The notes under the pieces were generated by a model. The model had not been told where the DNA came from, ran no database searches, and was given only the letters and a program-made list of their open reading frames with translations. This document shows positions 46,989 through 56,332 of a stretch of DNA of 64,000 nt, piece by piece. The position numbers and the translations under genes were made by a program. Origin of the DNA: a bacterium (GTDB lineage Bacteria > UBA8248); contig OZ253442.1 of the NCBI GenBank assembly GCA_965261085.1, positions 1,696,001-1,760,000 on the forward strand, given 5' to 3'. Each line of letters opens with the position of its first letter. Position 1 is the first letter of the stretch.

Positions 46989-47220
46989 GAAACGGCTGCA
47001 AAGGATTCGGTTACCCACCGAACTTGTCCGTATGAATCGGCTGCAAAGGATTTTGGTGGGCCACCGGGCTTGCCTGTATGAATCGGCTGCAAAGGATTTG
47101 GTTGCGTCACCGAGCCTGCCCATATGAATCGGCTGCAAAGGATTCGGTTGCATCGCCGGGCTTGCCCGTATGAAGCGGCTACGAGGGATTCGATTTCTTC
47201 ACCGAGCCTGCCCTTATGAA
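46989..47220. repeat. Degenerate tandem array, 5 units of 45-46 bp
   Basis: Core (TAT)GAATCGGCTGCAAAGGATT recurs at 46989, 47034, 47080, 47126 and 47172 with related intervening halves. Confidence 0.9.
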
Positions 47221-47222
47221 AT

Positions 47223-47714: not shown

Positions 47715-48037
47715 CCTCGCCTCATTCGGTTTTTATGGGGACAACCCCGAAATCTTTCGCGTTTTCTCAGGCTCATAAATCCCGCGCCATGAACCCCGCG
47801 CGGGTGTTTTTGATGGCGATAAGGAGAGGGAACAATCGAAGCCTTCCCGCCCCTTTCGGGGTTTGTTTATACCACAGAGGAAGCCGATGCGCTTTTGGGG
47901 AGACCGAGGGAGGAGAATTGCGTCCCCGAAGTGCCGGAATTGAGATGAGTTCGTGGACTTCAAAAGTGGCTTATCGTATCATAAACGTGCTTGGTTGTCT
48001 TGAGTCTGAATCTAGCCGACGCTACAGGAGAAACGAC

Positions 48038-48295
48038 GTGAAACAAGATGACGACACTAAGGACGGACGCTTTGAATTCAAAATCGATGGTGAACAACTG
48101 TATGCTCCGCACGAATCGATAACCGTTGCAGAACTTATCCAGATTGCTTTGGATGCAAAGGTTCTTGATCCAGTACAGGAGGGCTACACCCTTGAAGATG
48201 GCAAGGGAAATACCTTCGCCCCTGATGCTGTCATCGATCTTGACAAGACTAATGTGTTCTATGCAACAGAAAATGAACCAGGACCCGCTTCGTAG
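48038..48295 (+). CDS. Ubiquitin-like (multi-ubiquitin-type beta-grasp) protein
   Basis: GTG start after CAGGAG; FEFKIDGEQL...ITVAELI...YTL...D.VIDL....VFY pattern; ends EPGPAS; first gene of an E2/E1/JAB operon. Confidence 0.7.
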   Translation: MKQDDDTKDGRFEFKIDGEQLYAPHESITVAELIQIALDAKVLDPVQEGYTLEDGKGNTFAPDAVIDLDKTNVFYATENEPGPAS

Positions 48296-48324
48296 ATTCT
48301 TCCCCGCCTGGAAATGGATAGTGA

Positions 48325-48732
48325 TTGGTGGAACCTCTAACTGACTCCTTCCCGCCAAACCTTGTTCAGCTCCGTGACGCACTTTATGAAATAGACGTTG
48401 CGGACTTGGAGATATGCACGTGGCTTACGCGTCGCATGTTACGTGCGTGCGTTCCCGTTTATGTCGGCAAGTACGCCGGATCGATCAAACGGGTTGGGTG
48501 GAGCTTTCCCGACGACTCACAACCGTTTCCAGAATACGCTCCCCATTGGTTCCATGTAGCGGGAGAATACGACGATGGGAAAGAGGGTGCATGTGAGAAA
48601 GATCACGATGAAGATGGCAAATTGTGGCTTGCTTGGAGTCGTCCAATTGGCCCGTCCTGGATCGGCCCGTATCGGACTCCAAAGAAGCTCCTTCGGTCGA
48701 CTGTTACTCGATTTTGGAAGGCTTTGAAATGA
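48325..48732 (+). CDS. Prokaryotic E2/UBC-like protein
   Basis: FP...PFPEYAPHWFHV and WLAWSRP motifs typical of bacterial E2-fold proteins; ATGA overlap with the E1 gene. Confidence 0.65.
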   Translation: MVEPLTDSFPPNLVQLRDALYEIDVADLEICTWLTRRMLRACVPVYVGKYAGSIKRVGWSFPDDSQPFPEYAPHWFHVAGEYDDGKEGACEKDHDEDGKLWLAWSRPIGPSWIGPYRTPKKLLRSTVTRFWKALK

Positions 48733-50135
48733 CTACTTACTCAGTGGCTTGGCGTTCTGAAGTTGAAGCTATTGCCCGCCGTCACCTTCTGCAGCATCAC
48801 CATCTTGGCCGTCGCCAAGAGGATATTGCACTTGCTACATGGTATCCCGCGAGCGGTTCCAATCGCTATACTGCCATCATTGACGAAGTACTTTTGCCTA
48901 CAGAAGAAGAACGTATTCTCCAAGGCAACGTACAGATGACACGCGATTTTCTGCGTCGTTGCCGCCAGCGAGCGCTTTCGAAGGGTGCCGGTATGGCGGT
49001 AATGCACAATCATTTCGGTCCCGGTTGGCAGGAAATGAGTCCGGACGACGTTATTATGGAGCGTCGGAGTGTCTCCAATCCTGCCCGTGCGACCGGGCTA
49101 CCGGCTTTGGGCTTGACGCTCGGTACTGACGGAGCTTGGAGTGCTCGGTTCTGGATCCGAAAAAGATCGGATTTCGAGCGTCGGTGGTGCTCTTCAATCC
49201 GTATAATTTCTCCAAGCCGACTGTCGTTTCATGCCAATCCCCATGTTTTTCATTCTGACCTGAATGAATCGTCTTTGGAACGTTTTCGTCGATCTGTTGA
49301 GGCATGGGGTGTTGAGAGCCAAGCACTCCTAGGACAGTTGAAAGTTGGAATAGTCGGTCTCGGTAGCGTAGGCGCGCTAGCAGCCGAGGCGATGGGCCGA
49401 ATGGGTATACGACGGCTGGTCCTGATAGATATGGACTGTGTCGAGCCACATAATTTGGATCGCCTTGTTAATGCAGGTCGTTGGGATATTGGTCGATATA
49501 AAGTTCACGTGGCAGCAGAACATCTAGAACGTACGGCGTCTCATCCTTTTCATGAACTTATCGCTTTACCATTATCGCTTCGTGAGTCAAAAGCCTATCG
49601 ATCACTAGCTGATTGTGATGTTATCTTGGCCTGCGCAGATAAACCTATTGCACGTGATCTTGTAAACCATCTTGCTGTATGTCACTTGATCCCGGCAATT
49701 GAAGCTGGTGTTGCCCTTCGAAGCCGTGGTGGTCGCCTACATAAGGGTCATATCGTCTCTCAGGTGGTTACACCCGATAGCCGGTGTCTCAGATGCACAA
49801 AACAGTACACGACGGATCAACTCAGCCTGGAACTGGAAGGTCTACTAGAAGATCCGGAGTACATCCGCACCTTGCCGACTGACAAACGTCCCAATGCAGC
49901 CAACATTTTTCCAGCCAGTTTAGCGGCTGCATCGCAGCAAGTCGGTCTATTCACAAGAATGGTCCTTGGCCCGGAATGGTGGCCTCCGGTGTACCAACAG
50001 CGCCACCATTTAAGTGTTGCCTCACAACATATATCAATGGATGTTTGCAAGCCTTATTGCGACGTTCATGCACGCAACTGCCAAGGTAACCTCGGTGAGC
50101 CGAAGTGGCTTCTGCTATCAGGCGATTCTTCGTGA
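48729..50135 (+). CDS. JAB/MPN-peptidase-ThiF(E1) fusion protein
   Basis: N-terminal QEDIAL...MHNH...EMSPDD (E, HxH, SxxD); C-terminal GIVGLGSVG, DMDCVEPHNLDR, ACAD, CLRC, CKPYC. Confidence 0.88.
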   Translation: MTTYSVAWRSEVEAIARRHLLQHHHLGRRQEDIALATWYPASGSNRYTAIIDEVLLPTEEERILQGNVQMTRDFLRRCRQRALSKGAGMAVMHNHFGPGWQEMSPDDVIMERRSVSNPARATGLPALGLTLGTDGAWSARFWIRKRSDFERRWCSSIRIISPSRLSFHANPHVFHSDLNESSLERFRRSVEAWGVESQALLGQLKVGIVGLGSVGALAAEAMGRMGIRRLVLIDMDCVEPHNLDRLVNAGRWDIGRYKVHVAAEHLERTASHPFHELIALPLSLRESKAYRSLADCDVILACADKPIARDLVNHLAVCHLIPAIEAGVALRSRGGRLHKGHIVSQVVTPDSRCLRCTKQYTTDQLSLELEGLLEDPEYIRTLPTDKRPNAANIFPASLAAASQQVGLFTRMVLGPEWWPPVYQQRHHLSVASQHISMDVCKPYCDVHARNCQGNLGEPKWLLLSGDSS

Positions 50136-50138
50136 CTT

Positions 50139-51113
50139 ATGAGTGATTCCAAGGAATTAGAAGCGTTGCTACTGGAAGCGGACGGGATTGTCAATCGCGC
50201 CCATGAACTTCTTCATTCATGGCCTAACGCCAAAGCTGATCTAAAATCAGCCGAGGAGCTATCGTCATTACATCTAGCTCACTATACCTCTTTGGAAGCC
50301 ATTGTTTATATGCTTCAAACTTCAGATGGTGGCCTTCGACTCTCTCATACCTCAATAATGAACGATCCTGAGGAGGGGCGTGCCACTCTAGAAGGTCGTA
50401 TGATCTCGCATTTGCTGGAAAATGAATTCGGTGATGAGTCTTGGCTTTGGCAACGCTATGGTGCAGCTAATGTTTGCTGTTTTGTTGGTATCGTGCGTGA
50501 CGGTGAGCAAACTATCGACGCTGGTGACGACCTTCTCTTCTGGCGTCTTTATGGTAATGACTGTCGAGGCATTTCCATTACCCTCCCTCCTCACGTATCG
50601 AGGCGACTTGTTGATTCTTCTACTGTCGATTGCGTTATATATACCGACGATCCATCACTCGAAATTGATCTGTCGTTATTTTCATCTCTACTAAGGGACC
50701 TTGATTCTCTCCGCTGTCGTGCCCGCAATGCAGGACTTTGGTCTAAGATTTGTCCAGATGTTCTTGCCGCTTGTGATCCGCTCTTAAAGCAACGTTTTCT
50801 GCGCAAACGTTCCCATTATGCAATAGAACGCGAATATCGTGTCGTCGCGTTTCAATCAGAAGATGACGCTGAGGATGTTCTCTACTCCGGTGGTGGTCGG
50901 CATGTGCAACACGGGCTAATTCGAAATTACATACAAATTCCTGAACTGAGTTGTGAAGATATCCTCACTACAAATAGCCAAATTACGATTGGTTCCAATG
51001 TCCTCGAATCTTCAACTACGAAAGACATACTTTACAATTTGCTCGAATCTCGTGGGATAGTCCGTGGTGTAGTTTCCGTTCGTATTTCGGAAATTCCTTA
51101 TCGACCGCGCTGA
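50139..51113 (+). CDS. DUF2971-like protein
   Basis: HYTSLEA, MNDPEEG, FWRLYG...G, K..HY..EREYRV; starts 3 bp after the E1 stop. Confidence 0.7.
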   Translation: MSDSKELEALLLEADGIVNRAHELLHSWPNAKADLKSAEELSSLHLAHYTSLEAIVYMLQTSDGGLRLSHTSIMNDPEEGRATLEGRMISHLLENEFGDESWLWQRYGAANVCCFVGIVRDGEQTIDAGDDLLFWRLYGNDCRGISITLPPHVSRRLVDSSTVDCVIYTDDPSLEIDLSLFSSLLRDLDSLRCRARNAGLWSKICPDVLAACDPLLKQRFLRKRSHYAIEREYRVVAFQSEDDAEDVLYSGGGRHVQHGLIRNYIQIPELSCEDILTTNSQITIGSNVLESSTTKDILYNLLESRGIVRGVVSVRISEIPYRPR

Positions 51114-51121
51114 AATCCAGC

Positions 51122-51271
51122 CACGACGTGCCCGAGGCGGTGATTCGCAAGAGGTTCGACGCCGGGTGGCGCAACTTCGAGCAAGTCTACCAGGACTTGG
51201 TCGATGGGTGGATTTTGTACGATAATTCGGGCGATGAGCCGAAATTGCTGGTAGAGGAGTCGAGTGAATGA
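51122..51271 (+). pseudogene. C-terminal remnant of a zeta-toxin-like / predicted ABC-type ATPase
   Basis: Reads HDVPEAVIRKRFDAGWRNFEQVYQDLVDGWILYDNSGDEPKLL with no start or P-loop; not in the ORF track. Confidence 0.7.
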
Positions 51272-51495
51272 ATTCACGGAAACAAAACCTGACGCTAAAG
51301 CCTCGCGACCCGGACTTCGTAGGTTCTGATGTCGCGATGCTGAGGGCCGCCAAACGTGCGCGGCAACGAGCGAAAGAAACAGCCGAAATCGCCGCGGCGA
51401 CCAAAGGAAGCGGCGAGAGCGGACGAGGCGTCCGAGGGTTTAGAGCGCAAACCGGGCGAGATACAGGGGATGAACACCAACCGCGACCCACGTGA
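51268..51495 (+). CDS. Small hypothetical partner of the zeta-toxin-like ATPase
   Basis: ATGA overlap with the remnant; DPDFVGSDVAMLRAAKRAR helix resembles the usual downstream partner. Confidence 0.5.
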   Translation: MNSRKQNLTLKPRDPDFVGSDVAMLRAAKRARQRAKETAEIAAATKGSGESGRGVRGFRAQTGRDTGDEHQPRPT

Positions 51496-51768: not shown

Positions 51769-51981
51769 ACCCCTTCTTGAGGCCCGCCCCTACGGGAAAA
51801 TCTAACCAAGAGTGGCTACGTGGGATTCGATTGCTCCACCTGCTCCGCCCCTATGAAAGCCTTTCATTGCGACTCACCCCCCCTTGCCCCTACAATGTCA
51901 AACCCGACTGAGAAAGGAGGGTCTGCGCGTTCATATCGCGGCGGTTTTATTTTTCTAGGCACAGGGCGGGTTCGACAAATC

Positions 51982-55128: not shown

Positions 55129-55344
55129 ATGACGGGTTTTGAAACGGCGACACTCGGGTTCTACACCATGCAGTCCATGATCGGGCTCGCGCAGTGCGGG
55201 CTCATCTGGATGGGCCTTAGGCAAATGGGCCGCTCTTCGGAATTGCGTGAAAGAGAAGGAGCGAGACGGCATGATGAGGTCATGAAAAATCACTCTGAAT
55301 CCATGACCGCGCTTAAGACGCTCATCGAGCGGACAGCGAAGTAA
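55129..55344 (+). CDS. Small membrane-anchored peptide, copy 1 (71 aa, one heptad)
   Basis: Three paralogues with mostly synonymous differences and in-frame indels; SD upstream; N-terminal hydrophobic helix. Confidence 0.8.
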   Translation: MTGFETATLGFYTMQSMIGLAQCGLIWMGLRQMGRSSELREREGARRHDEVMKNHSESMTALKTLIERTAK

Positions 55345-55366
55345 CACCCGCTTCCTACCACATTTC

Positions 55367-55398
55367 CCGCCTCCGTCCTCCAGGACGGGGGCTTTTTT
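55367..55398 (+). terminator. Rho-independent terminator of module 1
   Basis: GCCTCCGTCC-TCCA-GGACGGGGGC-TTTTTT. Confidence 0.8.
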
Positions 55399-55465
55399 CG
55401 TCGATCCTTTGCCACTCGTCCACGGGGTGGTAGGTCAGTTCGTTTTCGGGCGGGAGGCCCGAATC

Positions 55466-55494
55466 TTGCGGGAGGGGGCGAAAGAGGGTAGTAT
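55466..55494 (+). promoter_or_regulatory. Putative sigma70 promoter of module 2
   Basis: TTGCGG-N17-TAGTAT. Confidence 0.6.
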
Positions 55495-55584
55495 TTTGCC
55501 TGAGATTTCGAGCAACGCAGGGTGAGATGCCCTGGGTTCACGAGGTTTTCAATGTAACGACGGGGGACCCGTAAGGAGGAAGGA

Positions 55585-55821
55585 ATGACGGGTTTTGAAA
55601 CGGCGACACTCGGGTTCTACACCATGCAATCCATGATCGGGCTTGCGCAGTGCGGCCTCATCTGGATGGGCCTTAGGCAGATGAGCCGCTCCTCGGAATT
55701 GCGCGAAAGAGAAGGAGCCAGGCGGCATGAGGAGGTCATGAAAAATCATACCGAGACCATGAAAAATCACGAGGAGTCCATGACCTCCCTCAAGACGCTT
55801 ATCGAGCGGACAGCGAAGTAA
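55585..55821 (+). CDS. Small membrane-anchored peptide, copy 2 (78 aa, two heptads)
   Basis: Paralogue of copy 1; AAGGAGG SD. Confidence 0.8.
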   Translation: MTGFETATLGFYTMQSMIGLAQCGLIWMGLRQMSRSSELREREGARRHEEVMKNHTETMKNHEESMTSLKTLIERTAK

Positions 55822-55843
55822 CTCTCGCTTTCCGGCAGCCATA

Positions 55844-55876
55844 CCGCCTCCGTCCTTCGGGACGGGGGCTTTTTTC
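55844..55876 (+). terminator. Rho-independent terminator of module 2
   Basis: GCCTCCGTCC-TTCG-GGACGGGGGC-TTTTTT. Confidence 0.8.
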
Positions 55877-55942
55877 GTCGATCCTTTGCTACTCGTCCAC
55901 GGGATGGCGAGTCGGTTCGTTGTCAAACGCCATGCCCGAATC

Positions 55943-55971
55943 TTGCAGGAGGGGGCGAAAGAGGGTAGTGT
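55943..55971 (+). promoter_or_regulatory. Putative sigma70 promoter of module 3
   Basis: TTGCAG-N17-TAGTGT. Confidence 0.6.
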
Positions 55972-56053
55972 TTTATTCGAGATTGCGAGCCATGGGACGC
56001 GAGGCCATGGAGTTTCGTAGTGTGAAAATAAAGGACCCGCAAGGGGAAACGGG

Positions 56054-56332
56054 ATGACGGGTTTTGAAACGGCGACACTCGGGTTCTACACCATGCAGTC
56101 CATGATCGGGCTCGCGCAGTGCCTGCTCATCTGGATGGGCTTGAAGCAAATGGGCCGCTCCTCGGAATTGCGCGAAAGAGAAGGAGCCAGACGGCATGAT
56201 GAGGTCATTAAAAATCACGCCGAGACCATGAACAATCACGCGGAGTCCATGAACAATCACGCGGAGACCATGAAAAATCATGAGGAGTCCATGACCGCTC
56301 TCAAGACTTTAATCGAGCGGACGGCGAAGTAA
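56054..56332 (+). CDS. Small membrane-anchored peptide, copy 3 (92 aa, four heptads)
   Basis: Paralogue with IKNHAET-MNNHAES-MNNHAET-MKNHEES. Confidence 0.8.
   Translation: MTGFETATLGFYTMQSMIGLAQCLLIWMGLKQMGRSSELREREGARRHDEVIKNHAETMNNHAESMNNHAETMKNHEESMTALKTLIERTAK

Follow-up and report, generated by a model that had tools for sequence, protein, structure and literature searches.

In the 64,000-nucleotide stretch of contig OZ253442.1 analysed here (the window; a bacterium of the UBA8248 lineage, GenBank assembly GCA_965261085.1), four tightly packed plus-strand genes at 48038-51113 encode a cysteine-free ubiquitin-like conjugation kit of the Bub type, inherited together with a predicted ADP-ribosyltransferase (ART) whose likely role, in a reading to which we give an even chance, is to serve the kit as an effector in antiphage or stress responses. 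The genes specify, in order, an 85-aa ubiquitin-like protein (Ubl; 48038-48295, GTG start; BubA-like, with one beta-grasp domain by family profile), a 135-aa E2 (48325-48732, TTG start; a BubB/Prok-E2_E-like UBC fold by model and conservation), a 468-aa JAB peptidase-E1 fusion (48729-50135; BubCD-like by profile and conservation) and a 324-aa DUF2971-family protein (50139-51113; the predicted ART, by model and motifs). An earlier interpretation made from the letters alone (the sequence-only reading) had described such a packed gene set in an AT-richer islet, and this was borne out: the genes are spaced by 29 nt (given there as 30), an ATGA overlap and 3 nt, and their GC contents are 0.46, 0.52, 0.51 and 0.46, against 0.587 for the genome. 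Its proposal of a Bub-like Ubl, E2 and JAB-E1 set is supported by profile searches, by a structural match of the E2 and by the matches of the Ubl.

The third gene product, predicted to be a JAB peptidase fused to a ThiF/E1 domain, indeed carries E31, H93-x-H95 and S104-x-x-D107 and matches the Pfam ThiF family (E 4e-32). With a profile of 73 homologues (A2), the top match in the Protein Data Bank (PDB) was Citrobacter BubCD (E 2.9e-29 over both domains), followed by the next family at 6.7e-17; a weak match to BilD (E 1.5e-4) was also seen. Besides the JAB residues E31, H93, H95 and D107, the protein has the adenylation residues D234, R245 and K258 and the zinc-site cysteines C353, C356, C440 and C444. 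H93, H95, S104, D107, D234, R245, K258, C353, C356 and Y378 are invariant in 89 of 89 non-redundant E1 sequences, and E31 is kept in 86. Specifically, a tyrosine in the crossover loop (Tyr378, codon 49860-49862) replaces the cysteine in all 89, which is a feature of type I Bub systems, as is the fusion of JAB to a homodimeric-type E1. Tyr378 was equated with Y370 of Citrobacter BubCD by eye against the published Table S2, this loop having dropped out when the BubCD of the same genome was aligned automatically. At locus L118, a stop codon lies inside the JAB part of the E1 gene.

The second gene product had been called E2-like partly from a WSR motif, which is present, and its model (predicted local distance difference test, pLDDT, 94.8) has the BubB/UBC fold. 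Its best structural match among 48,161 chains was Citrobacter BubB (9eav_D; Z 8.1, root mean square deviation (rmsd) 4.2, 122 residues aligned), with UBC/UEV folds coming next, and its relatives match Prok-E2_E, two of them above the cut-off. Foldseek gave no match for the model at E 0.001, with BubB at rank 35, and searches of PDB sequences with the E2 or its profile gave none. The predicted catalytic Ser105 (codon 48637-48639) is invariant in 67 of 67 aligned E2 sequences, as in type I, whereas the type I His two residues after it is replaced by Pro, Asn, Ala, Arg or Thr in all 67, and Asp is missing at the place matching the upstream Asp of type I. Conservation of His77 (codon 48553-48555) in 64 of the 67 suggests that this residue is the likely helper base for Ser105, replacing the type I His/Asp.

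The beta-grasp assignment of the 85-aa protein is supported by its family profile (A4), which matches the solved bacterial Ubls 8u38 (E 6.5e-4), 9d5b and 9cd2 (E 0.0046); relatives of the protein also match Pfam Multi_ubiq. The window Ubl ends in EPGPAS directly before the stop codon, with Ser85 encoded by the gene itself. A Ubl was detectable at 78 of 90 non-redundant loci, and in 77 of the 78 a P-x-x-V/A-S/A-type motif ends in Ser or Ala, and in none in Gly, whereas type I Ubls end in Gly after JAB cleavage. Seventy-three of these ends were found by pattern (54 at the stop codon, 12 tailed and 7 fused to E2) and 4 by eye; the sole exception, L083 (86-785), looks like a frameshifted Ubl-E2 fusion. 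Since both the tails, which are short and unconserved (12 loci, or 13 with L111, judged by eye), and the seven fused E2s start right behind the motif, cleavage probably occurs after Ser/Ala, and these relatives point to Ser85 as a ready-made reactive end in the window protein. Cleavage after the Gly of PGPAS was considered and rejected, because that Gly, lying four residues from the C-terminus in the subclade of the window, is not conserved and aligns with Thr, Met or Lys elsewhere. By analogy, a serine end has a precedent in type II: E. coli BubA has a C-terminal Ser (Table S2) and formed ATP-dependent conjugates, according to the accessible parts of 10.1101/2024.11.21.623953. The type II Ubl elsewhere in the source genome is likewise Ser-ended by sequence, and the phrase "C-terminal serine" does not occur in the available text of the Bub paper (PMC11601596).

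All Bub operons are said, in the portion available of 10.1101/2024.11.21.623953, to encode BubE (DUF6527), which is common to types I and II, but the locus described here does not. In the source genome (G000), PF20137 was found only in two other operons, 660-700 kb away, and it was found in none of 104 open reading frames (ORFs) chosen downstream of E1 genes of this branch. In addition, a home-made BubE profile detected no member in the branch loci while recovering the held-out control L090, and genomes G032 and G002 contain the operon and no BubE anywhere. The published catalogue was built from DUF6527-containing operons (header of its Table S1, as far as seen; 10.1101/2024.11.21.623953), and the BubE-less branch lies outside it because only such operons are listed. 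The BubE-less triad is a recurring, widespread and uncatalogued branch of cysteine-free Bub systems.

Comparison with known systems places the triad near, rather than within, the two Bub types. With type I (6E.1/DUF6527; Citrobacter BubAB, BubCD and BubE; PMC11601596; PDB 9EA4 and 9EAV) it shares the order Ubl-E2-JAB/E1, the JAB-E1 fusion, the crossover-loop Tyr for Cys and a serine E2 of the BubB fold, and separate Ubl and E2 genes also occur in the part of Table S1 that was available. It differs from type I in having no BubE, a Ser/Ala instead of a Gly end on the Ubl, S-R-P with another conserved His instead of S-x-H with Asp in the E2, four retained zinc cysteines in the E1 and, in one clade, the co-inherited ART. 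With type II (6E.2; E. coli ZDHYS365 BubA, BubBD and BubE) it shares the C-terminal Ser of the Ubl and the Tyr and Ser oxyester residues, and the residue two past the E2 Ser (K108) is dispensable there according to the legend of Fig. S5h, both points being drawn from excerpts of that work. In type II, however, E2 is fused to E1, typically without JAB, whereas here E2 is unfused, JAB is present, BubE is absent and the Ubl end motif is another. On the features compared, the triad belongs to the Bub lineage and would work like a Bub system, yet falls outside types I and II. It is not a Bil system of type I or II, since JAB is fused to a single adenylation domain and the E2 active-site position is Ser, whereas Bil has a separate JAB and a large IAD-AAD-CYS E1. 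The type II cyclic oligonucleotide-based antiphage signalling system (CBASS), with Cap2/Cap3 (10.1101/2022.03.31.486616, consulted in part), and Bil also place E1/E2/JAB machinery in defence loci, but both use cysteine thioesters, and CBASS has no Ubl, the immune enzyme's own C-terminus being conjugated. No publication dealing with operons that lack BubE, or with DUF2971 together with ubiquitin-like genes, came up in our literature search, with subscription journals and bioRxiv supplements outside its range.

The source genome contains three Bub-type systems, counting that in the window. One is a type I-like operon with BubE at C1:2405473-2407953 (minus strand; a Ubl with Gly and a tail, BubB with WSRH, BubCD and BubE), where a 337-aa ClpP/SDH-like gene, recognised by eye, follows BubE. 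The other is a type II operon at C1:2449690-2451591 (plus strand; a Ser-ended Ubl, BubBD and BubE), with an IrrE-like gene, also recognised by eye, upstream.

The DUF2971-like call for the fourth gene is probably right, although the window protein alone, at 16.7 bits, falls short of the Pfam cut-off of 22: its relatives pass, for example the L001 protein (54% identical; 29 bits), and 11 of 105 homologues carry a precomputed PF11185 assignment. The protein contains H48-Y49-T50, a C113-x-F115 strand and E230-x-E232. Its model (pLDDT 89.3) gave DarT 7omv (Z 8.4, rmsd 3.7, 146 residues aligned), Tpt1 7yw4 (Z 8.3) and DarT 7yk3 (Z 8.1) as top rows, and we therefore predict a DarT-like ART with intact H-Y..ExE motifs. 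DUF2971 has been described as an ART family in which a Tyr and ExE are conserved and which resembles AbiGi and DarT (PMC12522546), and its member Aristaios was tested as a single-gene, abortive-infection-like antiphage system (PMC11381338) that interferes with phage transcription (PMC13064643), as stated in the sections of these papers that were available. By description, gene 4 resembles Aristaios in its probable family (DUF2971, PF11185), size (324 versus 316 aa), predicted ART fold and Tyr plus ExE, whereas Aristaios is a single-gene system and the same sections of the three papers mention no link between DUF2971 and ubiquitin-like genes. DarT is structural kin, but no gene for a DarG macrodomain or NADAR antitoxin was found among the four genes or their flanks. 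Of the two defence-finding programs suggested earlier, PADLOC gave a weak PDC-S31 match in 52 of 72 DUF2971 family members.

Two ways of joining the ART to the E1 were considered and rejected. A read-through fusion was suggested by the ART being in frame one codon past the E1 stop in 6 of 6 loci, but the stop is TGA in four and TAG in two, and a protein of fused length was absent among the matches listed (120 of 945 E1 homologues). The idea that the E1 acts on the C-terminus of the ART itself, as on that of a CD-NTase, was rejected since the ends are not conserved as Gly, Ala or Ser. A complex prediction for JAB-E1, E2, Ubl and ART scored 0.00, which is evidence neither way, as controls were not folded and the job was unlike the calibration.

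The neighbourhood survey proposed in the sequence-only reading did reveal co-occurrence of Ubl, E2, JAB-E1 and DUF2971 genes, confined to one E1 clade. In a tree of E1s from 89 loci (a quick tree without bootstrap, with supports from the Shimodaira-Hasegawa-like approximate likelihood ratio test, SH-aLRT; the ART tree was made likewise), all 19 loci with an ART or its remnant fell in one clade of 21 (SH-aLRT 94), compared with none of the 68 outside, 52 of which have at least 1 kb of downstream DNA. The tree was used neither for rooting nor for placing the branch among Bub types, because the outgroup sits on a very long branch. Of the two remaining clade members, L011 lacks downstream DNA, and the slot in L111 is taken by an SDH/ClpP-like protease. 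The gene order of the window is no chance arrangement, as it recurs in all five close relatives found in genome contigs, although in L003 another sequence stands in place of the Ubl and the fourth gene is shortened. The ART is co-directional with the E1, at a 3-nt gap that puts it a single codon past the E1 stop, in 6 of 6 loci of one subclade and tail-to-tail with it in 13 loci, with a 35-nt overlap in 7. Although the two groups share only 24-29% identity, H48-Y49-T50 and E230-x-E232-x-R234 are conserved in both, and linked ARTs of both orientations form one clade (99), including P0273-P0279, apart from 19 background DUF2971 proteins. Distances among E1s and among ARTs were correlated (17 pairs, rho 0.85, 0 of 5000 permutations; 12 convergent pairs, 0.54, 28 of 5000), as would be expected of co-inheritance and not as a sign of interaction. 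An ART profile run against five sets of whole genomes (51, 301, 201, 137 and 201 genomes) found 18 genes, 15 of which abut an E1 gene; omission of the six seed genomes leaves 12 genes, 9 of them E1-adjacent, and the other three gave the weakest matches. The control, generic PF11185, had 26 matches spread over 25 of the 301 genomes, and only two of the 26 lay beside an E1. In addition, 39 of 67 close E1 clusters pair with a close ART cluster, by a measure that is a mere proxy for co-location. These data show co-inheritance of the ART with one triad lineage; that the two are also functionally coupled is inferred. The ART had been called a dedicated fourth component, and this holds in the sense of a long-term companion; functional dedication does not follow, as 68 triad relatives are without ART and some ART copies are truncated. 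The sequence-only reading had overlooked the lack of BubE, the Ser/Ala end of the Ubl and the predicted ART nature of the DUF2971 protein, with its kinship to Aristaios.

The four genes most likely form a stress or antiphage module whose effector is the Aristaios-like ART, regulated or assisted by Ubl tagging of the oxyester type. The Ubl would be made with its end, Ser85, ready; the E1 would adenylate this end with ATP and hand it to Tyr378 as an oxyester, the chemistry being that of BubCD Y370; and the Ubl would then pass to Ser105 of the E2, probably helped by His77, and on to a target lysine. The JAB domain is the likely eraser of tags, because there is no BubE and the window Ubl needs no trimming, yet JAB is intact; the Citrobacter JAB did not suppress conjugates, in what is available of 10.1101/2024.11.21.623953. 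As has been proposed for Aristaios, infection would be halted by the DUF2971 protein, which would consume NAD+ to attach ADP-ribose to protein or nucleic acid. In the least certain step, tagging and untagging would likely prime or restrain the ART, by the logic of type II CBASS, in which Cap2/Cap3 prime and disarm an immune enzyme (10.1101/2022.03.31.486616, accessible part). A stronger form, in which a third Bub type with a Ser-ended Ubl, a Tyr/Ser-His oxyester relay and a JAB eraser directly switches a DarT-like ART, is possible but doubtful.

Several observations weigh against an effector role of the ART within the module. The triad occurs without the ART at the 52 roomy loci outside the clade and at L111 inside it, so that most of the branch persists ART-less; L003 and L012 have truncated ARTs, and in G002 and G136 the open frames for it are short, at 208 and 233 aa, respectively; most linked ARTs lie on the opposite strand and hence are separately transcribed; and overlapping 3' ends can by themselves hold genes together. 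The clade counts are not independent events, because kin share neighbours, and seven members of the ART clade (P0273-P0279) are known without their neighbour genes. Structural scores for the ART fold are moderate, at a Z of about 8, with helical-bundle rows close after, and Foldseek gave no match for the ART model at E 0.001. The antiphage part of the reading rests on the defence context and the ART, as none of the Bub operons gave E. coli protection against phage in the accessible portion of 10.1101/2024.11.21.623953; Aristaios, for its part, works as a single gene according to the part of PMC11381338 that was seen.

The alternative that survives best, and which we regard as a serious contender though somewhat short of an even chance, is that two independent defence systems, a BubE-less Bub-type triad and a stand-alone Aristaios-like ART, were captured a single time and co-travel without biochemical contact, the pair being kept by physical overlap and shared benefit. 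The completeness of the triad without the ART at most loci, the convergent orientation with overlapping ends (13 loci), the single-gene nature of Aristaios and the decay of the ART in several loci all fit this alternative, as does the occupation of the downstream slot elsewhere by varied defence-type genes (DarT, HNH, AAA ATPases, Schlafen and patatin). However, the pairing has outlasted an inversion and spans four phylum-level lineages in which the neighbours have wholly changed, and the linked ART subfamily is almost never found alone, in contrast to the 2 of 26 E1-adjacent places (25 of 301 genomes) of generic DUF2971. It is improbable, in our view, that the ART is instead a regulator which ADP-ribosylates the Ubl, the E2 Ser or the E1 Tyr and turns tagging off in place of the missing BubE: the ART does occupy the bubE position of published operons, and ARTs that modify ubiquitin occur in pathogens, but most BubE-less loci have no ART, the structural neighbours DarT and Tpt1 are nucleic-acid ARTs and the intact JAB could be the off-switch. 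A ThiF/ThiS-type sulfur-carrier or cofactor pathway without protein conjugation is very improbable, for although the E1 retains ThiF/MoeB-type zinc cysteines and weakly matches ThiF and MoeB models, all NCBIfam ThiF/MoeB scores are far below cut-off, the Ubl lacks a Gly-Gly end, every locus with room has an E2, the 104 downstream ORFs include no rhodanese, desulfurase or cofactor genes, and the distribution (3 of 51 genomes in the phylum) is patchy and mobile.

Returning to the reading of the ART as effector, the co-inherited ART is what is new here and the distinctive, testable part. The targets and biological role of Bub pathways were left open by 10.1101/2024.11.21.623953, in the parts available, and this question becomes directly testable because the compact four-gene version brings its own candidate effector, which for once adjoins the tagging genes. 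The locus also widens the chemistry: it lacks BubE, the active site of its E2 is rearranged, and its JAB-E1 would work on a Ubl end other than glycine. Pairing of ubiquitin and ADP-ribose signalling is well known in animal immunity, and the functional coupling, if true, would provide an example from prokaryotes of ADP-ribose signalling that is wired to ubiquitin-like signalling. If the third-type form were true, the locus would be an immune circuit in which ubiquitin-like tagging controls ADP-ribosylation, and the ART would be the first native target or effector to become identifiable for a Bub pathway.

The operon is distributed patchily, being present in 3 of 51 genomes of the phylum (including that of the window) and in 14 of 301 in the sampled class around G055, and five relatives whose E1s are 79-81% identical come from records that bear the labels Rhodothermota, Acidobacteriota and Binatota. 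Genes flanking the relatives (29 chosen ORFs) include type I/III restriction-modification, Abi_C, Mrr, nucleotidyltransferase pairs and HTH-IrrE regulators, surroundings of a defence type like those of published Bub operons. Viral contigs contained no relatives of the ART or the E1, one distant E1 relative lies on a plasmid, and a further search with P0279 as query found no relatives. The one ART-less member of the clade has a convergent SDH/ClpP-like serine protease gene in the place of the ART (L164:4483-5424, G293; PF01972 E 3e-12), with a helix-turn-helix gene pair upstream, and effectors may be interchangeable in this slot. Outside the ART clade, the E1 of one BubE-less operon has an ART neighbour of a second, unrelated kind, a DarT gene (L041:6669-7322; PF14487 E 6.5e-60) that starts about 250 nt past it. 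At L003:4694-7626, the Ubl has been lost to a transposase-like insertion, E2 contains a stop codon and the ART is truncated.

In the window, the module arrived as a single mobile block. Identity to the same-genus genomes G031 and G033 breaks off at about 47895-47902 and restarts at 51122, delimiting a low-GC block (47903-51121, left edge approximate) that contains the four genes only, between an SNase gene and a remnant of a zeta-toxin/AAA_33-like ATPase gene. This remnant belongs to the host site and not to the system; its last 49 codons are left (51122-51271, plus strand), the 5' part having been replaced by the block, while G033 has an intact 183-aa counterpart (Zeta_toxin E 4.4e-10). We therefore consider the four genes one 3.2-kb insertion, since same-genus sequence flanks the block and most of the zeta-toxin-like gene is gone. 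Scans of the locus for promoters and terminators were at chance level (4 against 4.7 and 5 against 4.3, respectively).

At 51122-51495 of the window, the zeta-toxin-like remnant is followed by an intact 75-aa partner-like gene, and the interval that separates this pair from the SNase gene differs among same-genus genomes, resembling an insertion hotspot. Adjoining the SNase gene, five head-to-tail copies of a 45-46-nt repeat occupy 46989-47221, with another copy past the block at 51811-51858; similar sequences are scattered through the genome, in the manner of repetitive extragenic palindromic elements. Farther on, at 55129-56332 (plus strand), three tandem paralogous small genes, the first without a Pfam match, encode proteins of 71, 78 and 92 aa that share a common N-terminus and have a rising number of 7-residue internal repeats.

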